7,873 nt of DNA. It comes from a virus. Taxonomy: Duplodnaviria; Heunggongvirae; Uroviricota; Caudoviricetes. The DNA is taken from positions 1-7,873 of the IMG/VR virus record IMGVR_UViG_2671180770_000001; one strand, given 5' to 3'. The first letter of the stretch is position 1. Each line of letters starts with the position of its first letter. The position numbers were made by a program, and so were the translations under genes. The notes beneath the pieces are model-generated. The model was not told where the DNA came from and made no database searches. It saw only the letters and a list, made by a program, of their open reading frames with translations. Of the stretch, positions 1 to 7,873 are shown one piece after another.

Positions 1-100
1 CCCCATCCGCCAGCACCGACATGATTCTGCTGGTGAAATCCACCATCACCACCAGAAACAGCAGGAGTGCAGCCACAGCCAGGCGCAGTTTTACCGTCAC
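1..100 (-). CDS. Partial small hydrophobic (predicted membrane) protein; N-terminal 33 codons only, continues beyond the window start
   Basis: GTG at 100..98 overlaps the TGA stop of the upstream TerB-like gene (GTGA), with GGAG about 8 nt upstream. The frame stays open to position 1 and reads MTVKLRLAVAALLLFLVVMVDFTSRIMSVLADG, with a hydrophobic stretch of about 20 residues. Not in the ORF track because it is truncated. Confidence 0.4.
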   Translation of the reverse strand, partial: MTVKLRLAVAALLLFLVVMVDFTSRIMSVLADG

Positions 101-528
101 TGGTGATTCTCCAGACGAAGACCCAGAACACCGGCAATCTCTTCCAGCACCTTGCGCTCTTCCGGCTCAATTTCGCCGTCTGCCTCCGCAATGGCCACCG
201 CCACATCCAGCACATCTTCCGCTTCACGCGTATCGTGTTTCACATCTTCAATTTCACGCAATGCCGCTCGACGACCAATTTTAAAGTTCGTATCCAGCTG
301 ACCGATAATGGTTGCGCTAATCGCATTAATTTCTGACGTAAACGCGGACAACGCAGGCTGGTTACGCAAGACCTGCTCGATCTTCGCTTTCTCTGAAGCC
401 TCACATTCACCATCTGCATAGGCCACCAGATAGGCAGCATTAATAACCGCCTGTGCCAGATCACGTTTCTCAAACTTTTTAATTTCCACTGCCGCTCGGC
501 GGGCTTTTTTACCAAAAATACCAAACAT
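97..528 (-). CDS. TerB-family (tellurite-resistance TerB-like fold) protein, 143 aa
   Basis: The track ORF 97..600 is trimmed to the internal ATG at 528, which has AAAGGAA 8 nt upstream. The protein carries two copies of the acidic ADG-x5-E-x3-(L/I) motif (AYADGECEASEKAKIEQVL and AEADGEIEPEERKVLEEIAGVLGL) that I associate with the TerB / DjlA N-terminal fold. Family assignment is from motif recognition, not a search. Confidence 0.75.
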   Translation of the reverse strand: MFGIFGKKARRAAVEIKKFEKRDLAQAVINAAYLVAYADGECEASEKAKIEQVLRNQPALSAFTSEINAISATIIGQLDTNFKIGRRAALREIEDVKHDTREAEDVLDVAVAIAEADGEIEPEERKVLEEIAGVLGLRLENHQ

Positions 529-658
529 CGTGACGTTCCTTTGGGTGGGTGAGCCAACGCCCGGGAGCGATCTGCCCACAGAGAAAGTCACACTGACCAC
601 TCCGTAAGCTCACCCCCGAAAGGCTCTGTGGTTGATATGCGCCGGGCGTGGCGCAGAT

Positions 659-685
659 ACAAAAAAAGCCCGCCGAAGCGAGCCT
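659..685 (-). terminator. Rho-independent terminator immediately downstream of the tRNA cluster
   Basis: On the minus-sense RNA: GCUCGC-UUCG-GCGGGC hairpin (6 bp including one G.U, UUCG tetraloop) followed by UUUUUUUGU (plus strand 659..667 is acaaaaaaa). Confidence 0.55.
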
Positions 686-696
686 GATAATAAATC

Positions 697-771
697 TGGA
701 GCGGGTAGCGGGAATCGAACCCGCATCATCAGCCTGGAAGGCTGAGGTAATAGCCATTATACGGTACCCGC
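697..771 (-). tRNA. tRNA-Gly, anticodon UCC
   Basis: Reverse complement folds as a cloverleaf: perfect 7-bp acceptor stem GCGGGTA/TACCCGC, anticodon arm TCAGC-CTTCCAG-GCTGA, T arm GCGGG-TTCGATT-CCCGC, encoded CCA. Resembles the E. coli glyT type. Confidence 0.85.
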
Positions 772-774
772 ATA

Positions 775-850
775 TGGTGCCGGCTACCGGAATCGAACTG
801 GCGACCTGATGATTACAAGTCAGTTGCTCTACCATTGGAGCTAAACCAGC
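775..850 (-). tRNA. tRNA-Thr-like, anticodon UGU; degenerate stems, possibly impaired
   Basis: Reverse complement GCTGGTTTAGCTCCAATGGTAGAGCAACTGACTTGTAATCATCAGGTCGCCAGTTCGATTCCGGTAGCCGGCACCA. D arm GCTC/GAGC, anticodon loop CTTGTAA, T loop TTCGATT, discriminator A and CCA fit a thrU-like tRNA. The acceptor stem has two G.U pairs, the anticodon stem two mismatches and the T stem one mismatch. Confidence 0.6.
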
Positions 851-855
851 ATGTT

Positions 856-930
856 TGGCGGGACAGCGTGGACTCGAACCACGATAAGAAGGTTAACAGC
901 CTTCCGTAATGACCTTTATACGACTGACCC
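856..930 (-). tRNA. tRNA-Asn-like, anticodon GUU
   Basis: Reverse complement GGGTCAGTCGTATAAAGGTCATTACGGAAGGCTGTTAACCTTCTTATCGTGGTTCGAGTCCACGCTGTCCCGCCA. Perfect anticodon stem GAAGG/CCTTC with loop CTGTTAA, perfect T arm CGTGG-TTCGAGT-CCACG, encoded CCA. One U.U mismatch in the acceptor stem. Unlike the host-type tRNA-Asn I remember, so probably phage-type. Confidence 0.7.
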
Positions 931-984
931 AAATAAAAAAAGCCACCGTTGCAACTTAAGAGTCACTAACGGCAGCTTACATCT

Positions 985-1497
985 TTAAACGGTATGATAT
1001 TTCATTCTGGCTGCCTCAAAAGCCGCAGCGGCAAGTTCGGCAGTGTCATGGTATCCAAGGTTAATACACTTTCCAGACGCATTAATTCTTGCTCTCCATT
1101 TCCCGTACTTAGCATCCCAAGACACGCCACGGTATCCAGATTTATTATTCTTCTGAATTTTCCTGTTTTGCATATTTTCGGAATGAGTGACAAGACGAAG
1201 ATTTGATATCCGGTTATCTGTTCTTACCCTGTTGATGTGATCAATAAAACCATCTGGCATGGTGCCATAAACAATCAACCATGCCAGTCTGTGAGCAGGG
1301 TATGCTTTACCATTAATCATAATCATTAAATACCCATCAGAATTTATTGATGAGCATTTCTTGAAAGCAAAACGAGAGTTCCATGTCAAAGTGGTCCTCT
1401 CTCTCCCCTGCCTCCACCTCCAGTGAAAGTCGCCTGATGATGGATTGTAATCAACAACAGAAAGCACCATTTCTGGCGTTAATTTTATTTCTTTCAT
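985..1497 (-). CDS. HNH homing endonuclease with C-terminal AP2-like DNA-binding domain, 170 aa
   Basis: ATG at 1497 with AAGG upstream, stop TAA at 985..987. HNH-type motif region GFIDHINRVRTDNRISNLRLVTHSENMQNR; AP2-like segment GYRGVSWDAKYGKWRARINASGKCINLGYHDTAELAAAAFEAARMKYH. Codon usage is visibly AT-richer than the neighbouring genes. Confidence 0.8.
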   Translation of the reverse strand: MKEIKLTPEMVLSVVDYNPSSGDFHWRWRQGRERTTLTWNSRFAFKKCSSINSDGYLMIMINGKAYPAHRLAWLIVYGTMPDGFIDHINRVRTDNRISNLRLVTHSENMQNRKIQKNNKSGYRGVSWDAKYGKWRARINASGKCINLGYHDTAELAAAAFEAARMKYHTV

Positions 1498-1615
1498 CGC
1501 TTTACCTTAGGGATAGAGCCTGTTCGCGTAGATATGACAGCCAAGAGCGGAGCGATGTTTCCACCACCATATCTCAGGCCCATATCACTAAGACTCTTGT
1601 TTTGATTGCACGCGA

Positions 1616-1644
1616 ATGCAAAAAAGCCCACAGGAGGTGGGCTT
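1616..1644 (-). terminator. tR'-like rho-independent terminator of the short late leader transcript
   Basis: Minus-sense AAGCCCAC-CUCCU-GUGGGCUU (8-bp stem) followed by UUUUUGC. It lies about 45 nt downstream of the putative pR' -10 element. Confidence 0.7.
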
Positions 1645-1684
1645 GTGATGGTTGCTGAATGCAAAAGCAGCAGCATATGTGAAT

Positions 1685-1714
1685 ATTATGGCTAAATGGC
1701 TAATTGCATGTCAA
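1685..1714 (-). promoter_or_regulatory. pR'-like late promoter (putative -35 and -10; qut expected to overlap)
   Basis: Minus-sense TTGACA (1714..1709), 18-nt spacer, CATAAT (1690..1685). The -35 lies in the last codons of the Q-like gene and the -10 directly after its stop, the position pR' occupies in lambdoid phages. Confidence 0.45.
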
Positions 1715-2210
1715 GGCTTTTAACAGCAACATGCTTAACTTTCTCAACACGTTTACGCATTTTGAAAGCATTTTGCATTGGTTGGTACAAAACAAATAAT
1801 GACGCTTTCAGGATATCGTCAATTTCGTTTCTACAGGTTGCCAGTGAAGGTTTTCTCCATCCCTCGCCACCGCGTCCACACATCTTGCGTGGCTTTGCAG
1901 TCGCGTGATAGTAGGATGCAATTGCTCTCTTAGATGAACCATGAGCGTAGTAGCTGAGGAGGATGCCAAAGGCTTTCTTGTCAATGTACATGACGGAATC
2001 GACGACCTGAGAAATCAACATTCCATCATCATCATTGCACATTGGTCTTGTCATAACTCTTCCCGGCTCTACGCTCTCCATGAACTTCGCTATTACGCTG
2101 CTCATGCGCTTTTCCAGACGACCTGAATAAACCCATGCGCCCCACAGTTCAAGCCAGCCATTCAGCCAATCGTGCTGTTCTTTGGTGAGGTTTAGTTCTC
2201 TTATGCCCAT
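1692..2210 (-). CDS. Q: Late-gene antitermination protein Q (Q-family, not the lambda Q type), 172 aa
   Basis: ATG at 2210 with AAGGGAG upstream. Sits between ninG and the pR'/tR' pair. N-terminal WLELWGAWV motif resembles the ERWGAWA motif of Q proteins from other lambdoid prophages. Confidence 0.7.
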   Translation of the reverse strand: MGIRELNLTKEQHDWLNGWLELWGAWVYSGRLEKRMSSVIAKFMESVEPGRVMTRPMCNDDDGMLISQVVDSVMYIDKKAFGILLSYYAHGSSKRAIASYYHATAKPRKMCGRGGEGWRKPSLATCRNEIDDILKASLFVLYQPMQNAFKMRKRVEKVKHVAVKSLDMQLAI

Positions 2211-2253
2211 GCGACTTCTCCCTTGTTATCTGGAATGGTTTTTACTGAGAGCG

Positions 2254-2859
2254 TCATGCGGCCTCACTTCTGCTGTTTCGCAGGTCTTTGAGTTTCTGTT
2301 GGTACTCTGCCTTGATGGCCCTGCACTCTTCGACAGTCCAGCGATGGCGGTTATGGTTTGATTCGATTTCGTCTACTGCTTCCTGCCCGATGCGGTTAAT
2401 CAGTTCGACGCGATACGGAACGAGATTTCCGCTTTTGTGCTGGTTGCACACCACGCATTGCTTGTGAATATTGCGTTCATCAAATCGGAGTTGAGGCGCC
2501 GCAGCAGTTGTCCGGTAATGTCCGGCATCCCACTGAGCAGACGTGAGCGTTCCGCACGAGATACATGGTAAGTCGCGGTCTCTTTCTCTGATGAAGGCGT
2601 TTACGGCTTGTTGGGCTTGTTTAATCCAGTAACTGCGGGGCTTTAAGGCGAGTTTTCGAATCTTAATTTTATCTTTCTGTTTCTGCTCCTCTCGTCGTCG
2701 TTTCTTCTCTGCTGTTTTTTCCGCCTTTTCGCGTTCTTTATTTCGTCGTTCGAGCGCTAATTTAGTTCCGTGTTCCGGGCTGCACCACCACTGATTTGAG
2801 AATGCCGGGTGAAACCATTCCTTACAGATTTTGCATTTCCTTCGCGCTGGTTTAGCCAT
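2254..2859 (-). CDS. ninG: NinG (Rap) recombination-associated protein, 201 aa
   Basis: Translation ([39 protein letters not shown]...[30 protein letters not shown]) is nearly identical to lambda NinG as I recall it. GGGGAGG upstream of the ATG; the start overlaps the upstream stop (TAATG). Confidence 0.93.
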
Positions 2860-3587
2860 TAAGCAGCCTCCCCTGTTACTTTAAGCATTCCGTTATCTAG
2901 CAGCTTTCTTGTCAGCCACTGTTGACCACGCCCGGTGATTTTTGTGGTGAACGATATCTGTATTCCGTGATTTGTGTTGACCGCTGTTTCTTTCACTGTG
3001 AAATAGCCACGATCCATATATTCCTGCATTGGCACATTGCGCCGGGAGCCTGAAGCAATAAGGATTTTGTGATCGCGCATCCACGCAAACAGTTTGTTTG
3101 GACCAATACCAACAACCTTTGCAAAGTTTCCAATCAAAATTCTGCTGGACTCGCCAACGCGATCGGCAAACTCAACTTTAGGTGCTGCGAGAGCAAGCTG
3201 TTTCTCCAGTTCAGCCTTCTGGCCTTCAAGGTCGGCCGCAAGGCGCAATGCCTCAGAAAAGGTTTGTGGTATTTTCGCGGTTGCCCCTTCGAGTTCTCGC
3301 CAGCGGTCAACAAGGCGAGCGGTGAATTCCGGCGACAACTGGGCAACGACAATAATGCTGTCGCGCTTACCTTGTTCGCCCTCAAAAACGTAAGCCTCTA
3401 CGCCACGAAGTAATCCTAAGTTATTGATTTTTTCGAAAACCACCATTGGGGGATTTCGGATCACACCTCGAACCGCCAGTCGTTCAATGGATTGTTTCAC
3501 CTTGTCATGACGACTTCCCACCAACTCAGCGATTTCAATGCTTGTCATTTTGATGACGTTGCTATTTATCAGCTCGTTCATTGTCAT
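2859..3587 (-). CDS. Rha-type N-terminal / KilAC (ANT) C-terminal antirepressor-like DNA-binding protein (Roi-like), 242 aa
   Basis: ATG at 3587 with GAGAGGA upstream. N-terminus ...[24 protein letters not shown]... resembles the Rha family; the C-terminal half resembles the phage antirepressor KilAC domain. Translationally coupled to ninG. Confidence 0.7.
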
Positions 3588-3610
3588 GTCCTCTCATATT
3601 GAAAATTCAG

Positions 3611-3638
3611 CAATAAAAAACCCAGCCGAAGCTGGGTT
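3611..3638 (-). terminator. Rho-independent terminator between the ORF6N gene and the Rha-like gene
   Basis: Minus-sense AACCCAGC-UUCG-GCUGGGUU (8-bp stem, UUCG tetraloop) followed by UUUUUUAUUG. Confidence 0.7.
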
Positions 3639-3655
3639 TGTTAAGTTGTCAATTG

Positions 3656-4342
3656 TCAGTAGCGATGCAGTGAAGGCGGCAACTCTTTGTTCTTAAGCCT
3701 TTCCCATGCCAGAAGGTTCGTCGGCCCGTCAGGCTCATAAATATCTATATCCCGCGTGTGATTAATTAAAACGCCCCTCGCCCTCCCGATGATATACGAG
3801 AACTCATAGCCGTAGTCGTGGCATATGCCGGAATAGCCAGACTGAATCAGTTTTAATGCGGGATACAACTCACGGAACAATGCCTGTGAGCGGTTGGCAT
3901 AATCCCATAGCCATACAAGGCTGTCTGTTTCTTTTGCGGAAAGCCCGTTGGGCTTCTTCTCTTGTTTGCCAGTATTTTTCTCGCACTGGCTGAAATAGCA
4001 GTCTTCCAATTTTTCGAACACTTCCCACGCCTGATCGGTTTCTAGCATTTTTGCGTGGCGGGCTGCGCCTCGTTCTGTCCAGAGGATGAGCGAGCGGGTT
4101 TTGGGAGAGATTTTCACCTCATTTTGCGACTCGTTTAAAACTAGTCGCAAATTTCTGAGTTCATCACCAACAGCTTTAAAGAAGTGCTTTCCCTCAATAA
4201 ACCGAGATTTATTTTCATGGTGATTCTGCTGTATACGGATTGTTTCTGTTCCATAAAGGCGGGCAAGCAACTCAGTTGTGATTACCGGAATCTGGTTATA
4301 GGTAACAGGGGAAAGGTTTTTGACAGAGATTTGAACAGTCAT
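3656..4342 (-). CDS. ORF6N (KilA-N-like) domain protein with uncharacterised C-terminal domain, 228 aa
   Basis: ATG at 4342 with GAGG 7 nt upstream. The N-terminal ~120 aa contain [16 protein letters not shown] and [31 protein letters not shown], matching the ORF6N pattern (FxEGKHYF ... LWTExG). The C-terminal ~100 aa are not recognisable to me. Confidence 0.7.
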
Positions 4343-4383
4343 AACGACCTCGCGTTTCGATAATTTTTACCTCACCACCTTTA

Positions 4384-4474
4384 GGTGCTAATCATCGTGG
4401 TGGCGAACTGTGCGGGGTTAGCACTACCGGTCGAAACATCCGGCGAGCCTTTCGGCTCCCCCACACAGCCCGCC
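4384..4474 (-). promoter_or_regulatory. Candidate structured RNA / regulatory element upstream of the ORF6N gene
   Basis: Arms 4402..4417 and 4459..4474 form a 16-bp stem in minus-sense RNA (13 Watson-Crick plus 3 G.U); the same three positions are A.C or C.A mismatches on the plus strand. It encloses a GAGCC-GAAA-GGCUC hairpin (GNRA loop, 4445..4458) and a CCGG/CCGG hairpin (4427..4443). GGTGCTAATC at 4384..4393 recurs at 4549..4558, with an inverted copy of GTGCTAA at 4418..4424. Confidence 0.3.
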
Positions 4475-4503
4475 ATAAATCGCGAATGTGACTGTGCTTA
4501 GCG

Positions 4504-4527
4504 CATAAAAAAACCGCCAGCGCGGTT
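4504..4527 (-). terminator. Candidate rho-independent terminator downstream of ninE (tR3/tR4-like)
   Basis: Minus-sense AACCGC-GCUG-GCGGUU (6-bp stem) followed by UUUUUUUAU. Confidence 0.5.
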
Positions 4528-4617
4528 ATGCACCGTTTCGATATCCGGGGTGCTAATCCCGACGCCAGATTTTGCTGGCGTGCGAGGAATATAGCCCCGA
4601 ATAAATCATCGCGTCAA

Positions 4618-4800
4618 TCACCTTGTTTTCCTCGCACGATGTCTTAGCCACCGGATATCCCACAGATGAGCCGTGTAATTGAAGGTTTTTACGTCAGATT
4701 CTTTTGGGATTGGCTTGCGTTTATTTCTGGAGCGTTTCGTTGGAAGGTATTTGCAGTTTTCGCAGATGATGTCGGTGAAACTTCGTCGCTGTCGCCTCAT
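4618..4800 (-). CDS. ninE: NinE, 60 aa
   Basis: Internal ATG at 4800 of track ORF 4618..4890, overlapping the Dam stop (ATGA). Translation [60 protein letters not shown] matches lambda NinE as I recall it. Confidence 0.85.
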
Positions 4801-5324
4801 GCCGCCCTCCTGACGCCCTGCCCGATCGCCATCAATGCCGCTTTGGATACGGTAGTAAACATCCGTCGAGGACTGATGAACGGTCGCCAAATCAGCAGCA
4901 TGGAGCCTTTACTGTTTCCCTTCTTCTCCAGCCCTGTCGATGGTTCGATAAAATTAATCCGTCCATCAGTGATAATGCGAACTTCGTCGACACTCTCCAG
5001 AGCCTTGCTGAACCATCCGACTGACATATCCTCTGGCACAAGCATAACTACCGTCTGTCGCTGTTGTATGCACTGCTCAGCGGCTTTTTCCACCCACGGC
5101 CTGATATTGCTGTACGGTGGGTTATTCCAGATTGCACCGTGGCTTACCCACTCAGAATTGAGCGCGTCGTCGGCCTCAGTTAGCCAGTGAGCACACAGAG
5201 CATTTTTGTCGCTCGCTGCCGAATCCAGCCAGAATCCAAACTCAATATCCAGTGCATCAAAAAGCCAAAGCGGCGTTTGCCAGCAGTCCTTGTCGTGTGC
5301 TGGCGTATTTGATTTGATAGTCAT
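4797..5324 (-). CDS. Phage orphan DNA N6-adenine methyltransferase (Dam family), 175 aa
   Basis: N-terminal [11 protein letters not shown] and the catalytic NPPY motif ([14 protein letters not shown]). ATG overlaps the ninB stop (ATGA). It occupies the slot held by ninC in lambda. Confidence 0.85.
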
Positions 5325-5767
5325 GCAGCCCTACCTTTTCGTTGTGACCATTCATACTCTCGCCGGGAGTCATCACTCCACCGCACGTTGCGCTCTGAGC
5401 CGAACCAGAACATGATTTCGATAAGCTCAGTCATGCTGGCCTTCCGCATTTTTCTGGTACGCACGCCAAGCATGACAACGCCACCGTCGATACCAGGCAC
5501 ACTTCGTTGCTCCAGTTTTTTGGTCTTAAGCCACAGGGCAGTGAACAGGTCTTTCCAGTCTTCCGGCGCCAGCCGTTGACCATGCCATAGCACCTGACGC
5601 GAAACATCGTTCAGCATCGGCCACATGCGGTCATTCTGCGCTTTGCTGCGCCTGGGTTCTTTAACGTGGACTTCGTGGGGTGACTTGTCGTCGATGGGTA
5701 GTGAGAGAATGGCGTCTATGGCGTTATTTCTGATTGCTTCGTTGCGAAGCAGAAAGGCTTGCTTCAT
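5321..5767 (-). CDS. ninB: NinB (Orf-family recombination mediator), 148 aa
   Basis: Track ORF 5321..5869 trimmed to the ATG at 5767, which has GGAGAG upstream. The segment ...DRMWPMLNDVSRQVLWHGQRL...[19 protein letters not shown] is collinear with lambda NinB. Confidence 0.88.
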   Translation of the reverse strand: MKQAFLLRNEAIRNNAIDAILSLPIDDKSPHEVHVKEPRRSKAQNDRMWPMLNDVSRQVLWHGQRLAPEDWKDLFTALWLKTKKLEQRSVPGIDGGVVMLGVRTRKMRKASMTELIEIMFWFGSERNVRWSDDSRREYEWSQRKGRAA

Positions 5768-5960
5768 CTCCTGCTCTCCGGTTCCATTTTTCAGCCGCCG
5801 CAGCAACTGATGGTGCCCATGCCCCCCTGGCTTCACAGAGGTCACATTCTGCATAGCCCCACACATCAATATTTATTCCGGCCTCAACCCACAGACGAGC
5901 ATTACCGCCGCAAAACGGACATTCTTTTAGCTTTGGCTGGGTTAATGATAGGTCGCTCAT
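5724..5960 (-). CDS. Lar-family restriction-alleviation-like zinc-ribbon protein, 78 aa
   Basis: Internal ATG at 5960 of track ORF 5724..6167, with AGGAG upstream. CPFCGG...C..C zinc-ribbon motif (KLKECPFCGGNARLWVEAGINIDVWGYAECDLCEARGAW). The 3' end overlaps the ninB start by 44 nt in another frame. Confidence 0.55.
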   Translation of the reverse strand: MSDLSLTQPKLKECPFCGGNARLWVEAGINIDVWGYAECDLCEARGAWAPSVAAAAEKWNRRAGDEASLSASQRSNQK

Positions 5961-5970
5961 GCTCGCTCCT

Positions 5971-6186
5971 TCACTTAAAATCCAGACTCCGGATAATTCT
6001 GTTGCGCTGAAACTCATTGTTGAGTTTGAACAACCGTCGAAGAACACGGTCACGCGGATAGCGTCGTGCGGCAGGTGAATGCTCATACAACTCATCAAGC
6101 GGCAAACTGGACGATGAACGATACCGATACCAACGCACCAACTCTTCACGAAAATTAGCCCTGACAAGCTCAGCTATCGTACTCAT
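5971..6186 (-). CDS. Hypothetical small Arg-rich protein, 71 aa
   Basis: ATG at 6186 with GGAGG 9 nt upstream; first gene after the tR2-like terminator, stop 10 nt before the Lar-like start. No family recognised. Confidence 0.5.
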   Translation of the reverse strand: MSTIAELVRANFREELVRWYRYRSSSSLPLDELYEHSPAARRYPRDRVLRRLFKLNNEFQRNRIIRSLDFK

Positions 6187-6212
6187 TTCTTAAAGCCTCC
6201 AATTACTCTTCC

Positions 6213-6246
6213 TCAAATAAAAAGGCCTGCGATTACCAGCAGGCCT
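6213..6246 (-). terminator. tR2-like rho-independent terminator downstream of ren
   Basis: Minus-sense AGGCCUGC-n8-GCAGGCCU (8-bp stem) followed by UUUUAUUUGAGG. Position between ren and the nin genes matches lambda tR2. Confidence 0.7.
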
Positions 6247-6271
6247 GTTACAAGCTCAGTGATGTAGATGG

Positions 6272-6562
6272 TCATCTTTTAACTCCATATACCGCCAATA
6301 CCCGTTTCATCGCGGCACTCTGGCGACACTCCTTAAAAATCAGGTTCGTGCTCACCTTTCCTTCCCGTTCTTCCCTGGTAGCAAACCGGTAATACACCGT
6401 TCGCCAGACCTTACCATCAATGACAAGGATTCCTGCCCGCGCCATTTTAGCCGCAGCCTGATTTATACTGGTTACGGTTGCGCCTGTTAGCGCGGCAACG
6501 TCCGGCGCACAGAAGCTATTATGCGTCCCCAGGTAATGAATAATTGCCTCTTTGCCCGTCAT
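6272..6562 (-). CDS. ren: Ren (Rex-exclusion escape protein), 96 aa
   Basis: Translation MTGKEAIIHYLGTHNSFCAPDVAALTGATVTSINQAAAKMARAGILVIDGKVWRTVYYRFATREEREGK... is near-identical to lambda Ren as I recall it. ATG overlaps the P stop (ATGA). Confidence 0.9.
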   Translation of the reverse strand: MTGKEAIIHYLGTHNSFCAPDVAALTGATVTSINQAAAKMARAGILVIDGKVWRTVYYRFATREEREGKVSTNLIFKECRQSAAMKRVLAVYGVKR

Positions 6563-7260
6563 ACACTTGCTCCTTTCAGTCCGAACTTAGCTTTAATTTC
6601 TGCGATCTTCGCCAGAGCCTGAACATGATTTAGAGGTCTGCCGCCCATGACAGGAAGTTGTTTTACTGGTTCAGGAATCACCTCACCACGGTTAATTCTC
6701 GCAGTCATATGGACAAGCTCATCTGCGGCCTTGCGCCGTAATTCCGCGTCAGTCAGCGCATTGGCCCGCATGTTCTGGTACAGGTTGGTAACCAGCCAGT
6801 AGTGCGCGTTCGATTTCCACGGATAAGACTCTGCATCCGGATACAGGCCTCGCTTCCGGCAATACTCGTAAACCATATCAACCAGCTCGCTGACGTTTGG
6901 CAGTCCGGCGATAACGGATGCTTCTTCCCGGCACCATGCAACAAACTGCCCGGGTGATGGAAGAAATGGTCGATTCTGCCGACGGGCTACGCGCATTCCT
7001 GCGTTAACCTGTTCCATCGAGGTGATCCCGTTTTCCCGGAAAGCCAGAACCCACTGGCGGCGGATTTCATTCAGTTCGTTCTGGTCCCGGTTAGCCAGAC
7101 TCGCCGGGAAAGTTGCCAGTAACTGGCTGAACACACCGTTGATGATCTGCGCTACCTGTTGTACCTGCGGCTTTTCGTCGTACTGTTCCGGCATGTTGTT
7201 GGTGATCCGACGCATCTGCTCACGGTCAAAGTTAACCATCTGTGCGGCGATGTTTTTCAT
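6559..7260 (-). CDS. P: Replication protein P (DnaB helicase loader), 233 aa
   Basis: Translation MKNIAAQMVNFDREQMRRITNNMPEQYDEKPQVQQVAQIINGVFSQLLATFPASLANRDQNE... is near-identical to lambda P. ATG overlaps the O stop (ATGA). Confidence 0.95.
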   Translation of the reverse strand: MKNIAAQMVNFDREQMRRITNNMPEQYDEKPQVQQVAQIINGVFSQLLATFPASLANRDQNELNEIRRQWVLAFRENGITSMEQVNAGMRVARRQNRPFLPSPGQFVAWCREEASVIAGLPNVSELVDMVYEYCRKRGLYPDAESYPWKSNAHYWLVTNLYQNMRANALTDAELRRKAADELVHMTARINRGEVIPEPVKQLPVMGGRPLNHVQALAKIAEIKAKFGLKGASV

Positions 7261-7873
7261 AAATCCACCCCGTAAATCCAGTCAGTGTTTGTCAGGTCGA
7301 GTTTTGGTTTTCCAGCTGTCACGCCAGCCTGTTGCTTGTTACGGTTGATTTCGAGTTGGGTCCACTTGTCGCGGAGTTTGGCCGGACTTAGCACGTTACC
7401 GGACCAGAAGTTGTCCTGGCATGCCCAGCAGAACAGCACGCACATGTCGCGGTGGTTACGTCCGTCACGTTCACGCATCAGGCGGATATCGTTAGCCCAC
7501 CCTGCAAAATTCGGTTTTCTGGCTGATGGTGCGATGGTCTTCACCATGTCAAACATCCACTCTGCGGCGGTCAGGTCTTCTGCTGTTCCCCACTTGCTGC
7601 CGCTCTGAATTGCAGCATCCGGTTTAACCACAGAAAGATCGTTTTCTGGCTGGTCAGAGGATTCGCCAGAATTCTCGGACGAATAATCTTTTCTTTTTTC
7701 TTTTGTAATAGTGTCTTTTGTGTCCCCCTGTTTTGAGGGATAGCAATCCCCTAATTTGAGGGATGTTTTATCCCTCGTTTTAGGGGGGGTTCCCTCGTTT
7801 TGAGGGATGTCCCTCATTTTAGGGGAACCTCCCTCGTTTTGAGGGATGCACCATTCTGAGATGTTTTTATTTG
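7257..7873 (-). CDS. O: Replication initiator O, C-terminal ~205 codons; N-terminus lies beyond the window end
   Basis: The frame is open from 7873 down to the TGA at 7257..7259. Translation ...NKNISEWCIPQNEGGSPKMRDIPQNEGTPPKTRDKTSLKLGDCYPSKQGDTKDTITKEKRKDYSSENSGESSDQPENDLSVVKPD...TNTDWIYGVDL matches lambda O and contains the ori-encoded segment. Confidence 0.93.
   Translation of the reverse strand, partial: NKNISEWCIPQNEGGSPKMRDIPQNEGTPPKTRDKTSLKLGDCYPSKQGDTKDTITKEKRKDYSSENSGESSDQPENDLSVVKPDAAIQSGSKWGTAEDLTAAEWMFDMVKTIAPSARKPNFAGWANDIRLMRERDGRNHRDMCVLFCWACQDNFWSGNVLSPAKLRDKWTQLEINRNKQQAGVTAGKPKLDLTNTDWIYGVDL
7680..7846. repeat. ori-lambda-type replication origin: six iterons plus adjacent AT-rich region, inside the O reading frame
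   Basis: Six copies of the palindromic iteron TCCCTC-n4/5-GAGGGA at 7723..7740, 7747..7763, 7771..7787, 7791..7807, 7810..7826 and 7830..7846, spaced 19 to 24 bp. Flanked by the AT-rich stretch cgaataatcttttcttttttcttttgtaatagtgtcttttg (7680..7720). Confidence 0.85.

Follow-up and report, generated by a model that had tools for sequence, protein, structure and literature searches.

The main new result at this locus is a structured leader RNA, not the HNH endonuclease gene that follows it. We analysed positions 1–7,873 of the Caudoviricetes record IMGVR_UViG_2671180770_000001 (7,873 nt; referred to as the window, to which all coordinates refer). An earlier note on this DNA had described an HNH endonuclease gene beside a tRNA cluster and had overlooked the conserved structured RNA leader directly upstream of it. 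We lean slightly towards regarding this leader as a previously undescribed class of structured cis-regulatory RNA, composed of a hairpin, a Shine-Dalgarno (SD)-sequestering hairpin, and two pseudoknots, that gates selfish or accessory genes for DNA-binding proteins and nucleases (HNH-AP2, T5orf172/GIY-YIG, KilA-N, Rha, and KilAC) lying downstream of terminators in temperate phages of enterobacteria, Stx-converting phages among them. The HNH gene is already known, as phage HK629 has an annotated HNH endonuclease of identical protein sequence. Together, gene and leader probably constitute a free-standing homing endonuclease cassette on a Q-dependent late transcript, with translation gated by the leader RNA.

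Organization of the late regulatory region

The HNH cassette comprises ~700 bp, and the order of elements is PR′, leader A with terminator A, the ~130-nt leader RNA, the HNH ORF, leader B, and tRNAs (Table 1). The HNH ORF is thus the first protein-coding gene on what would be the Q-dependent late transcript of a lambdoid prophage. The Q gene shares 98% nucleotide identity with Sf6 gene 59, and PR′, which is identical in sequence to the annotated Sf6 PR′, was the sole good match in a sigma-70 scan of the minus strand between 600 and 2300. Two direct 8-mers, AATTAGCC (1698–1705) and ATTTAGCC (1690–1697), lie between the -35 and -10 elements at the position of the curated QBEu/QBEd of phage 21 and form a putative Q-binding element. 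The same repeats are found in Sf6, whereas those of phage 21 are ATTGAGCA/AATGAGCA. Transcription from PR′ is predicted to start at A1678. The TATGCTG element, which is located 31 nt past the -35 with a spacing equal to that of TAAGCTG in Sf6 and is kept in all ten lineage representatives, may act as the pause element in leader A. Terminator A (mean pairwise identity of 89% across lineages) is also present without the HNH gene in WCHEC115106 and Hafnia phage yong1, where the holin leader follows it directly. It is the first terminator past PR′ and therefore the functional tR′ of the prophage.

Table 1. Features of the late regulatory region, the HNH cassette, and the adjacent tRNA genes in the window.
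Feature	Position	Strand	Evidence
Q antiterminator gene, 172 aa, Sf6 gene 59/phage 21 Q family	1692..2210	-	Pfam Phage_antitermQ 90.1 bits; PHROG 943 E=3e-93
Late promoter PR′	1685..1714	-	-35 TTGACA 1709–1714; -10 CATAAT 1685–1690; promoter scan 11/12 positions
Leader A candidate pause element TATGCTG, -10-like, sigma-dependent	1671..1677	-	Comparison with Sf6 and phage 21 SDPE annotation
Terminator A	1618..1644	-	AAGCCCAC-CUCCU-GUGGGCUU then U6; terminator scan; hairpin -12.5 kcal/mol
Leader RNA, 5′ UTR of HNH gene	1492..1624	-	Fold and covariance evidence
HNH(N)-AP2 endonuclease gene, 170 aa, ATG to stop	985..1497	-	Pfam, PHROG, AF2/Foldseek
Leader B, displaced phage-21-type pause element TAAGCTG (973–979) with phage-21-type tR′ hairpin and U-run	931..979	-	
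tRNA-Asn (GUU)	856..930	-	ARAGORN; Rfam tRNA 55.3 bits
tRNA-Thr (UGU)-like, mismatches in anticodon and T stems	778..850	-	Rfam tRNA 49 bits; no ARAGORN call
tRNA-Gly (UCC)	697..771	-	ARAGORN; Rfam 55.4 bits

Leader B, 5 nt past the HNH stop codon, has a fold energy of -20.2 kcal/mol and is collinear with the annotated SDPE and terminator of phage 21 and with the tR′ of Sf6. Its tR′ (931–978) separates the HNH stop codon from the tRNAs. The earlier placement of the gene between tR′ and the tRNAs was thus accurate in that Q lies upstream and the tRNAs downstream, but the gene is bracketed by two terminators, terminator A and the tR′ of leader B. On the sequence level, the region has the components of a phage 21-type late region, namely a Q-family gene, 8-mer direct repeats, a -10-like pause element at +2 to +8, and an intrinsic terminator within ~60 nt, and leader B is phage 21 sequence itself. 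The window differs from phage 21 in having two tandem pause-element/terminator modules with the HNH cassette between them.

A structured leader RNA precedes the HNH gene

The untranslated spacer (~120–130 nt within 1492–1624) has 91% nucleotide identity across lineages, compared with 64% for the HNH coding sequence. It is predicted to form a P1 hairpin (1606–1621) and a long irregular hairpin (~1506–1592), whose basal helix (1588–1592 with 1506–1510) pairs the SD region (AAGG, 1505–1508). Pseudoknot A would form between the P1 loop UUCGCGU (1610–1616) and the internal loop ACGCGAA (1523–1529), and pseudoknot B between CAAGAG (1594–1599) and the apical CUCUUG (1542–1547). One common fold was recovered in all 14 independent MFE predictions, and the SD is paired in 14/14 and 137/157 predicted MFE folds, i.e., within a stable local structure like that of T4-type sequestered ribosome binding sites. 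The leader hairpin is hence predicted to sequester the SD sequence, and both pseudoknots are supported by covariation. These results are based on MFE folds and a covariance-model alignment, which we preferred because the MAFFT/RNAalifold alignment offset two classes at the SD helix and understated the structure. Single-sequence fold z-scores were modest (-1.4 to -3.9).

The basal helix co-varies (CUUAG/CUAAG versus CUUUC/GAAAG and others), and a covariance model built from the KilA-N class alone scores the HNH leader at 76.1 bits (E=4e-15). Conservation could in principle act on the DNA, with the spacer serving as a nuclease recognition or immunity site, an operator, or a recombination hot spot; the element accompanies the HNH gene in all lineages, and the P1 and pseudoknot strands are partly palindromic, and palindromic operators co-vary as well. 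We nevertheless consider this very improbable, because 24 of the 36 helix pairs show compensatory changes, many via G-U intermediates that are sensible only in RNA, and because covariation of the two long-range pairings is seen across 12 and at least 6 versions of the sequence. Moreover, the element is strand-specific and always ends at an SD sequence and start codon, in front of unrelated genes at unrelated genome positions.

Translation of the spacer does not account for its conservation. A 60-aa ORF (1494–1676) and an upstream ORF of 29 codons overlapping the start of the HNH gene (ATGA) are both interrupted by stops in the lineages L050 and L057 and by frame-shifting indels, and the 199-aa gene calls (P0004 and P0010), which are in-frame fusions with the 29-codon ORF, are restricted to one lineage. 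In the deposited HK629 annotation, a "pR′" lies within the spacer and the leader RNA goes unrecognised; this promoter is unsupported by our sigma-70 scan, which found no sigma-70-like promoter inside the leader (1498–1684, minus strand).

The leader element is likewise found ahead of KilA-N, Rha, KilAC, and T5orf172 genes, with occurrences in hundreds of phage contigs and no fewer than 953 E. coli genomes; Shiga-toxin phages are among its carriers. A metagenome scan with a 17-mer returned 87 loci, only 18 of which have the composite motif; the others were treated as probable chance matches. The element is apparently uncatalogued. Rfam 15 returned no match on the leader at E≤1 (window 550–1800, where only tRNAs matched) and none at E≤0.1 for three other classes of the element. 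Motifs associated with KilA-N, HNH, or Rha are not mentioned in the main texts of a 224-motif survey and a 2026 coevolution-mining preprint, and a literature search on an rha/IHF-related stem-loop of P22 or phi80 yielded nothing relevant among the papers searched.

RNA structures that occlude the SD are known from HEGs of T-even phages (I-TevI, I-TevII, I-TevIII, segB, and mobE of Aeh1; PMC2988022). The leader in the window is similar to these in its predicted SD occlusion and in preceding an endonuclease gene on a longer phage transcript. However, the T-even hairpins are simple and local, and initiation at a late promoter within the hairpin itself relieves them, whereas the leader described here is ~130 nt long, has two co-varying pseudoknots and invariant loops, and serves several unrelated gene families. 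An internal promoter that would give a shorter, translatable transcript, as in the T4-type case, was likewise not found in 1498–1684 by the scan, which covers sigma-70-like promoters.

In the self-cleaving Pistol ribozyme, the loop of a 5′ hairpin pairs over ~6 bp with an internal loop of the following hairpin, giving a pseudoknot. The predicted leader RNA resembles this topology, which is a lead only: the leader exceeds the ribozyme in length more than twofold, contains a second pseudoknot, and takes in the SD. The Pistol assignment was rejected given the lack of an Rfam match, and so was a hammerhead ribozyme, considered for CUGAG/GAA-like motifs, as the hammerhead core is also absent. Models of known ribozymes should be among those in Rfam release 15. 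With loops that do not vary and a fold of this complexity, the leader RNA may be more than a passive hairpin: it could sense a particular signal of the cell or the phage, in a riboswitch-like manner or by binding a protein, or it could be a site of processing or self-cleavage. A role as a regulatory switch would account for the way in which temperate phages restrain DNA-binding and nuclease morons that are potentially toxic, and would establish a new class of RNA found in E. coli prophages and cultured coliphages.

The gene encodes a putative I-HmuI-like HNH-AP2 endonuclease

The earlier call of a 170-aa HNH protein with an AP2 domain was exact in its ORF and confirmed by profile searches: residues 66–110 match the full-length HNH_3 profile (PF13392, positions 1–46; 66.1 bits, cut-off 24.8) and residues 120–167 match AP2 (PF00847; 35.1 bits, cut-off 33.3). 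The AP2 score barely exceeds the Pfam cut-off. A NUMOD motif, which the earlier note had also proposed to search for, was not found in the 170-aa protein. The protein also matches PHROG 99 (HNH endonuclease, E=3e-73). The AF2 model (pLDDT 89.6) has I-HmuI as its top PDB match in Foldseek (1u3e_M, probability 1.00, 107 aligned columns), and the modelled nuclease half shows the beta-beta-alpha-metal fold of the HNH_3/I-HmuI-like family. The AP2 part is modelled as three strands (125–150) and a helix (153–167), superimposes on 1gcc_A (rmsd 1.8 Å) and on TEM1 AP2 (rmsd 1.2–1.7 Å) in Foldseek, and has a phmmer match to the AP2 of WRI1 (E=2e-6).

Catalytic residues, the absence of which would have spoken against an active enzyme, are in place: D86, H87, N99, and N111 are invariant among 30 family members, N108 is found in at least 90% of them, and the D-H...N-L-R...N motif aligns with I-HmuI. 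By analogy with I-HmuI, these presumably comprise the catalytic His that serves as general base, the Asp next to it, an Asn with a structural role, and an Asn that binds the metal. The AP2 core is invariant among the 30 relatives as well. Identity at codon positions 1, 2, and 3 is 0.71, 0.79, and 0.41 across seven lineages, with third positions saturated, and purifying selection evidently acts on the HNH protein. The gene is compositionally foreign, in agreement with the earlier remark that it is AT-richer than its neighbours: its GC and GC3 are 0.409 and 0.392, compared with 0.455–0.543 and 0.48–0.62 for the ten other genes of the window, and it falls within the lowest 0.5% by GC of all 513-nt windows. 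The ORF has its own SD and start codon, is intergenic between Q and the tRNAs, and lies outside any intron or intein. We interpret 985–1497 as a free-standing gene for an I-HmuI-like endonuclease of the HNH(N)-AP2 type with putative nuclease activity.

The protein is 100% identical to HK629_061 of HK629 (AFM76545.1; RefSeq WP_000658765.1), which shares the post-Q position, leader A with terminator A, the leader RNA, and the tR′ of leader B after the stop codon. HK629 differs in that this tR′ joins a lambda-type holin leader directly, without tRNAs, and in having NinH before Q, where the window has NinG. A further copy in an E. coli E2348/69 prophage (WP_000658764.1) has an insert that is 99.3% identical. 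No functional study of the HK629 HNH protein was found among the titles and abstracts of the best matches in a literature search for HK629. Structurally, the nuclease half is matched best by I-HmuI (PDB 1U3E), a nicking HNH homing endonuclease from Bacillus phage SPO1, which is encoded in an intron, has another C-terminal DNA-binding module, and shares only ~20% identity (phmmer E-value 0.2). The same two-domain architecture is found in the free-standing HNN-AP2 or "IPA-HNH" endonucleases of Xanthomonas phages Xp10, Xop411, and OP1, Vibrio phage ICP1, and Felix O1-like phages, which have the motif boxes HRLAWL, WP, DH, DNR, NLR, and EN in common with the window protein. These enzymes are at most ~45% identical to it, are scattered in lytic-phage genomes without a single regulatory slot, and have no reported shared structured leader. 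HNH-AP2 proteins are a recognised HEG family (PMC10448857, PMC2248197), and IPA-HNH-type nuclease genes occur at boundaries of genetic exchange (PMC10448857), as does the HNH gene in the window.

The cassette occupies one regulatory slot and is probably mobile by homing

The cassette was found in 41 of 5,426 E. coli genomes, always with at least 99% identity, while the Q allele occurs at ≥95% identity in ~418 genomes, so that ~10% of the prophages with a matching Q allele have the HNH cassette. This agrees with the earlier statement that the gene is not part of the standard lambdoid late region; the opposing case of universal presence with matching composition was not what we found. The empty-site comparison that had been proposed gave clean alleles with exact junctions, at one flank in Sf6, phage 21, and JLK-2012 and at the other in WCHEC115106 (versus HK629) and Hafnia phage yong1 (versus L050). 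In the comparison of yong1 and L050, a 14-nt direct repeat (GGGCTTTTTGCATT) flanks the cassette, and further short repeats are found at its edges (TATGCTGC/TAAGCTGC and GGCTTTTTT). Such presence/absence polymorphism at one site among close relatives, with definable empty sites, is characteristic of HEGs. Scans of one genome per species, by protein and by a spacer 22-mer, returned no matches, because the cassette is too sporadic for single representative genomes.

The surroundings vary while the cassette is constant: NinG, NinH, or NinI and a Q and QBE of Sf6 or phage 21 type lie upstream, and tRNAs with TerB, tRNAs with a holin, or a holin alone lie downstream. In all eight sampled lineages, which have 62–100% protein identity and differing Q and QBE types, the gene is located directly after Q. 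The diverged relatives (62–76% identity) come from Escherichia and from records labelled Pantoea and Serratia, and all occupy the post-Q slot. Judged by these sequences, the HNH cassette belongs to a lineage that has long been tied to this site and does not represent a single recent insertion. The earlier suggestion of a recent insertion therefore applies only within the ≥99% clade, the spread of which does look recent; the 62–96% relatives in the same slot contradict it for the lineage.

Our preferred explanation, homing, would work as follows. Without Q, transcription from PR′ would halt at terminator A, and the nuclease would therefore be silent in the lysogen; Q-modified RNA polymerase would read through both terminators, and the basal helix of the leader RNA, by sequestering the SD, would hold down or gate translation of the nuclease. 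The enzyme would most likely nick or cut DNA of related phages lacking the cassette near the Q/late-operon junction, with the empty-site junctions as candidate targets, and recombinational repair would copy the cassette in; cleavage of HNH-less relatives, also suggested by the earlier note, is plausible. At a minimum, the enzyme would stimulate exchange at the Q/late-operon module boundary. As the cassette edges coincide with homologous diverged leader alleles and short repeats, ordinary recombination, homologous or illegitimate, among mosaic lambdoid phages could give the same distribution without nuclease activity. Two observations do not favour homing: the empty alleles share little beyond the terminator T-run, with no single obvious target site, and the ≥99% identity of the E. 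coli copies might result from clonal spread in linkage with Q.

The nuclease could instead be an accessory weapon or helper that benefits the phage, for example by damaging co-resident or superinfecting phages or by nicking host DNA late, and keep its post-Q position because expression there is late and tightly controlled. The maintenance of one slot behind several Q types while the protein diverged to 62% under purifying selection fits a retained function better than the gain-and-decay cycle typical of HEGs, and the sharing of the leader RNA with the non-nuclease genes KilA-N, Rha, and KilAC suggests a general accessory-gene expression slot. Yet the ~10% carriage and the deletion derivatives of the cassette in NCTC9112 and PhiR12 phages mark the gene as dispensable, and the HNH-AP2 family is otherwise known as HEGs, which leaves this explanation unlikely, albeit worth bearing in mind. 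Even less probable is that the gene is an inert passenger, once mobile and now moved only by general recombination of lambdoid modules. Classic mosaic junctions at the flanks, cassette boundaries at short homologies, and the near identity of all E. coli copies, which fits simple linkage to one Q clade, would be expected from such a passenger. The invariant D-H...N...N residues and AP2 core, and saturation at codon position 3 (41% identity) with 79% identity at position 2, are not, and in the sequences searched the truncated and frameshifted forms are in minority clusters beside a full-length cluster of 265 members. A role as a DNA-packaging cofactor like HK97 gp74, acting with terminase at cos, is scarcely credible and was rejected on architecture and position: lambdoid and HK97-like phages often encode an HNH protein beside terminase, and the relative LZSFT34 has such a gene further downstream, but the HNH_3-AP2 architecture is unlike the small gp74-type HNH, accessory and lysis genes separate the gene from the terminase-proximal region (related prophages, HK629), and most phages with a matching late region are without it.

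Under the homing explanation, the locus shows a homing-endonuclease-type lineage specialised for one lambdoid regulatory slot, which opens the Q-antiterminated late transcript where the Q module meets the lysis/tRNA modules. By supplying a pause element and a terminator of its own, the cassette would leave the late switch intact. HK629 and the E2348/69 prophage are natural test systems for homing or nuclease-driven mosaicism in temperate phages.

tRNA genes

The region downstream of leader B encodes three tRNAs rather than two, with the tRNA-Thr (UGU)-like gene added by Rfam. The JLK-2012 counterpart of window positions 500–979 is 99.8% identical and has an annotated tRNA-Thr in the matching region.

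The HNH-AP2 gene and its protein

Judged by its sequence, the HNH-AP2 gene is catalytically intact and belongs to a dispensable cassette that occupies a fixed position behind the antiterminator gene Q. Upstream of the gene are a terminator and a leader that is conserved and pseudoknotted and occludes the Shine-Dalgarno (SD) sequence; a second terminator follows the gene. The ORF runs from ATG to stop over 170 codons, and its product matches Pfam HNH_3 (66.1 bits, residues 66-110, cut-off 24.8), Pfam AP2 (35.1 bits, residues 120-167, cut-off 33.3), and PHROG 99 'HNH endonuclease' (E=3e-73), which bears out the assignment in the earlier note. Its claim that the gene is AT-richer than its flanks also holds: GC is 0.409 and GC3 0.392, compared with 0.455-0.543 and 0.48-0.62 in the ten other genes of the window, and the composition falls within the lowest 0.5% among all 513-nt windows.

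In an alignment of 30 relatives, D86, H87, N99, L100, R101, and N111 are invariant, and H69, R70, D94, N95, R96, and N108 nearly so. These residues form the same HRLAWL, DH, DNR, NLR, and EN boxes as in the HNN-AP2 endonucleases of Xanthomonas phages (PMC2248197), and the D-H...N-L-R...N motif of I-HmuI aligns with the protein. An AlphaFold model from the same alignment (pLDDT 89.6) has I-HmuI (1u3e) as its best PDB match (probability 1.00), and its C-terminal part matches plant AP2/ERF domains (1gcc, rmsd 1.8 A; TEM1). By profile, motif, and fold, the protein is a member of the I-HmuI-like HNH_3 and AP2 families, and HNH-AP2 is a recognised HEG architecture (PMC10448857). Identities of 0.71, 0.79, and 0.41 at codon positions 1, 2, and 3 across seven lineages indicate purifying selection on a functional protein. 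In genomic terms, the gene is a candidate for the functional class 'homing endonuclease'. It is identical to the annotated HNH endonuclease of HK629 and is not new in itself.

Features of the late region and its surroundings
Feature	Position	Strand	Description
NinG	2254-2859	-	gene call/Pfam
Q	1692-2210	-	stop codon 1692-1694
PR'	TTGACA 1709-1714; CATAAT 1685-1690	-	near-consensus, 18-nt spacer; overlaps Q stop codon
TATGCTG	1671-1677	-	-10-like element, seven bases past -10
Terminator A	1618-1644	-	strong intrinsic, AAGCCCAC/GUGGGCUU + U6
Leader RNA	1492-1624	-	
HNH ORF	985-1497	-	170 codons
Leader B	931-979	-	TAAGCTG, then phage-21-type tR' hairpin + U-run; five bases past HNH stop
tRNA-Asn	856-930	-	ARAGORN; starts right after leader B, at 930
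tRNA-Thr(UGU)-like	778-850	-	Rfam, 49 bits; missed by ARAGORN
tRNA-Gly	697-771	-	ARAGORN
Terminator	666-685	-	strong intrinsic, AGGCUCGC-UUCG-GCGGGCUU + U7; directly past tRNA-Gly, ahead of TerB/TciA
TerB	97-600	-	gene call/Pfam

The late leader and its terminators

Every gene in the window is on the minus strand, in the order replication O/P-like, NinB, Dam, P22AR/ORF6N antirepressor, KilAC/Rha antirepressor, NinG, Q, HNH, tRNAs, and TerB. The late promoter PR' is identical to the annotated PR' of Sf6, and between its hexamers are two direct 8-mers (AATTAGCC and ATTTAGCC) at the position of the curated Q-binding element (QBE) of phage 21 (ATTGAGCA/AATGAGCA). TATGCTG is the counterpart of the sigma-dependent pause element annotated in phage 21, and Sf6 has TAAGCTG at the same spacing, 31 nt from the -35. 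Terminator A is followed by a 120-nt untranslated spacer, an AAGG SD, and the HNH ORF; leader B is collinear with features of phage 21 and Sf6. The earlier note had placed the gene between tR' and the tRNA genes. A tR'-like terminator does lie upstream and the tRNAs downstream, but the gene is bracketed by two leader/terminator modules, the second of which is missing from the earlier note.

Without Q, transcripts from PR' would end at terminator A, which would make the nuclease a late gene that is silent in the lysogen. Because the cassette carries a predicted pause element of its own, correctly spaced from the QBE, its insertion would leave Q loading intact. Three terminators lie within ~1 kb of the late leader, all to be read through by Q-modified polymerase.

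By analogy with the phage 21 start site, the terminated PR' transcript is predicted to be ~60 nt long (1618-1678, minus strand; AUAUGCUGCUGCUUUUGCAUUCAGC...GUGGGCUUUUUU), and its region is 85-89% conserved across lineages with Q genes that are ~69% identical. In Stx phages, the equivalent short transcript from PR' is a regulatory sRNA (StxS), and the one predicted here could have the same role.

A conserved, pseudoknotted leader RNA

Mean pairwise nucleotide identity among seven divergent lineages is 91% for the 120-nt spacer, 85-89% for leader A and terminator A, 64% for the HNH coding sequence, and 69% for the Q 3' end. Coding is ruled out as the explanation for spacer conservation by frame-breaking indels and stop codons. 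The element starts 1 nt beyond positions 985-1497. All 14 independently folded sequences share one predicted architecture, in which a short 5' hairpin (P1) precedes a single hairpin that is long and irregular. The latter pairs with the SD through its basal helix and also has an internal loop (7 nt, 3' side) and an apical segment that does not vary. MFE folds pair the SD in 137 of 157 copies, and a T-run lies just upstream of 145 of the 157.

A covariance model built from KilA-N-class copies only finds every HNH-class copy (76-93 bits), including that of the window (1492-1624; 76.1 bits, E=4e-15), and also diverged copies upstream of KilA-N and Rha genes. Among 34 distinct sequences, standard pairs fill 94.7% of pair cells, compared with 79% in shuffles, none of 500 of which reaches that level, and 36-45% with slid partners; 24 of 36 pairs show compensatory double changes, versus 5-9 in slid controls. 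Two long-range pairings that are not encoded in the model also co-vary. Pseudoknot A joins the P1 loop to the internal loop, in versions that include UUCGCGU/ACGCGAA, UCUCAC/GUGAGA, CUCGCGU/ACGCGAG, UCGCAC/GUGCGA, UUCACC/GGUGAA, and UCGUAC/GUACGA; there are 12 loop variants among 157 unique copies, and the complement extends over at least 6 nt in 64% of copies versus 1.4% with swapped partners. Pseudoknot B joins the linker to the apical loop (versions include CAAGAG/CUCUUG, CGAGAG/CUCUCG, CCCGAG/CUCGGG, and CCACAGAG/CUCUGUGG). In a formal count, A and B are 92.9% and 93.2% paired, and 5 of the 6 pairs in A show compensatory changes.

Two segments, the internal loop ACGCGAA and the apical CAUCG(C/U)UCCGCUCUUGG (window 1523-1529 and 1541-1557, minus strand), stay invariant in the HNH and Klebsiella KilA-N classes even where the helices next to them change. 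Such conservation exceeds the needs of pairing and may point to a binding site or a tertiary contact.

The leader RNA occurs well beyond this locus. In the tail-gene region of Klebsiella phage Kp4856-1, a terminator is followed by a diverged spacer copy, with a KilA-N gene downstream. Two IMG/VR pattern scans gave at least 120 matches each and, among the matches listed, the downstream genes were KilA-N (by far the commonest), T5orf172/MUG113, KilAC antirepressor, Rha, and the HNH-AP2 lineage. One sequence class alone is present in at least 953 of 5,426 E. coli genomes, as well as in HK620, HK106, Sf101, phiv205-1, g341c, and many Stx1a/Stx2a-converting phages. No Rfam 15 family matched any class checked, and a literature search found no description. 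The leader RNA, widespread, covariation-supported, and apparently uncatalogued, is the more important of two novelties here.

Three phage contigs carry two copies each, of different sequence classes and ahead of different genes: L098 (5850-5986, 8309-8441), L271 (338-462, 12998-13134), and L214 (495-630, 13535-13677). The cassette-bearing locus of plasmid pCDF6_2 likewise has a second copy, this one of another class and ahead of a KilA-N gene (745-609). With two copies per contig ahead of different genes, the leader RNA behaves as a reusable module within a single genome.

We infer that the leader RNA limits or gates translation of the nuclease. In T-even phages, translation of I-TevI, I-TevII, I-TevIII, segB, and mobE is limited by simpler RBS-sequestering hairpins (PMC2988022). 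Since the leader RNA serves unrelated proteins, the encoded protein is unlikely to regulate itself through it.

A site-specific lineage after Q

The second novelty is the site-specific tie of this HNH lineage to the Q late leader, including the tandem-terminator architecture. In the phage collection, the nearest homologues outside the clade are ~45% identical and belong to Xp10-like, Felix O1-like, and Sf11-like virulent phages; a large protein database holds graded homologues at 95, 76, 71, 69, 67, 65, and 62% identity. The gene has the same neighbours in every lineage sampled (8 of 8, among them E. coli and records with the labels Pantoea anthophila and Serratia sp.): a Phage_antitermQ gene immediately upstream and the lysis genes downstream. 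On this comparative evidence, the association with the Q/late-leader slot is therefore old. The recent insertion suggested in the earlier note does not fit this; only the spread of the clade at ≥99% identity looks recent.

Some E. coli prophages (L050/L052) have two HNH_3+AP2 genes flanking Q (2776-3297 and 4001-4513), one between NinH and Q that overlaps the Q start and the other after Q. HNH_3 genes also lie beside NinG in Pantoea-/Serratia-labelled and related loci (L057, L059, L060, and L063). HNH_3 genes seem to have a hot spot in the nin-Q region.

Empty sites and distribution of the cassette

Empty-site alleles, which the earlier note had proposed as a check, are present. Sf6 is identical to the window through CCATAAT and then has only 'tagaag' before GTAAGCTGCCG, where the window has 704 nt (981-1684); phage 21 and JLK-2012 share this B-only arrangement. 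The opposite empty allele is found in E. coli WCHEC115106, in which PR', leader A, and terminator A (65 nt, 100% identical) are joined directly to 'gtttgcacaacaggtaagagcatt', a sequence that comes after tR'-B in HK629. Hafnia phage yong1 is a clean empty site for the 62%-identical sister cassette of L050, which in this comparison is bounded by a 14-nt direct repeat (GGGCTTTTTGCATT).

Of 5,426 complete E. coli genomes, 41 have the 704-bp insert, with ≥99% identity in each, and ~418 have the adjacent Q allele (≥95% identity), giving an occupancy of ~10%. Both junctions are invariant in 38 viral contigs, beyond whose tR'-B lie tRNAs (17 contigs) or a lambda-type holin leader (20); the upstream neighbour of Q varies (NinG, NinH, or NinI). 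Three loci at 95-96% protein identity have a phage-21-type upstream junction, with the cassette behind a true phage-21-type Q and QBE and the junction exactly at the pause element, between ...CACTATTCGCA and TATGCTGCTGC.

Relatives that lack the cassette are probably nicked or cut by the enzyme near the junction, and repair would then copy the cassette in. As the main alternative, the distribution may be explained by ordinary lambdoid recombination at short homologies (TATGCTGC/TAAGCTGC; GGCTTTTTT), in which case the nuclease would have another role or none.

Deletion derivatives, in E. coli NCTC9112 (L008, 2501-2755) and the PhiR12 phages (PhiR12_1: L006, 2501-3371), retain Q, PR', leader A, the complete leader RNA, and the HNH ORF as far as its nucleotide 68; the sequence then switches to DNA from upstream of a SASA-family esterase gene. 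These natural HNH-minus, leader-plus alleles are useful controls. Plasmid pCDF6_2 (L010; 178,896 bp) carries the HNH cassette (2505-3017) with a whole lambdoid late region and may be a phage-plasmid or hold an integrated prophage.

tRNA genes

In the tRNA-Thr-like gene, two pairs at the top of the anticodon stem and one in the T stem are mismatched. The Sf6 copy pairs better, and the gene here may encode an unusual tRNA or be in decay. An otherwise 99.6-100% identical prophage in E. coli LZSFT34 (L004) lacks window positions 722-864, from inside tRNA-Gly to inside tRNA-Asn, and with them the tRNA-Thr-like gene, in what looks like recombination between similar tRNA genes.
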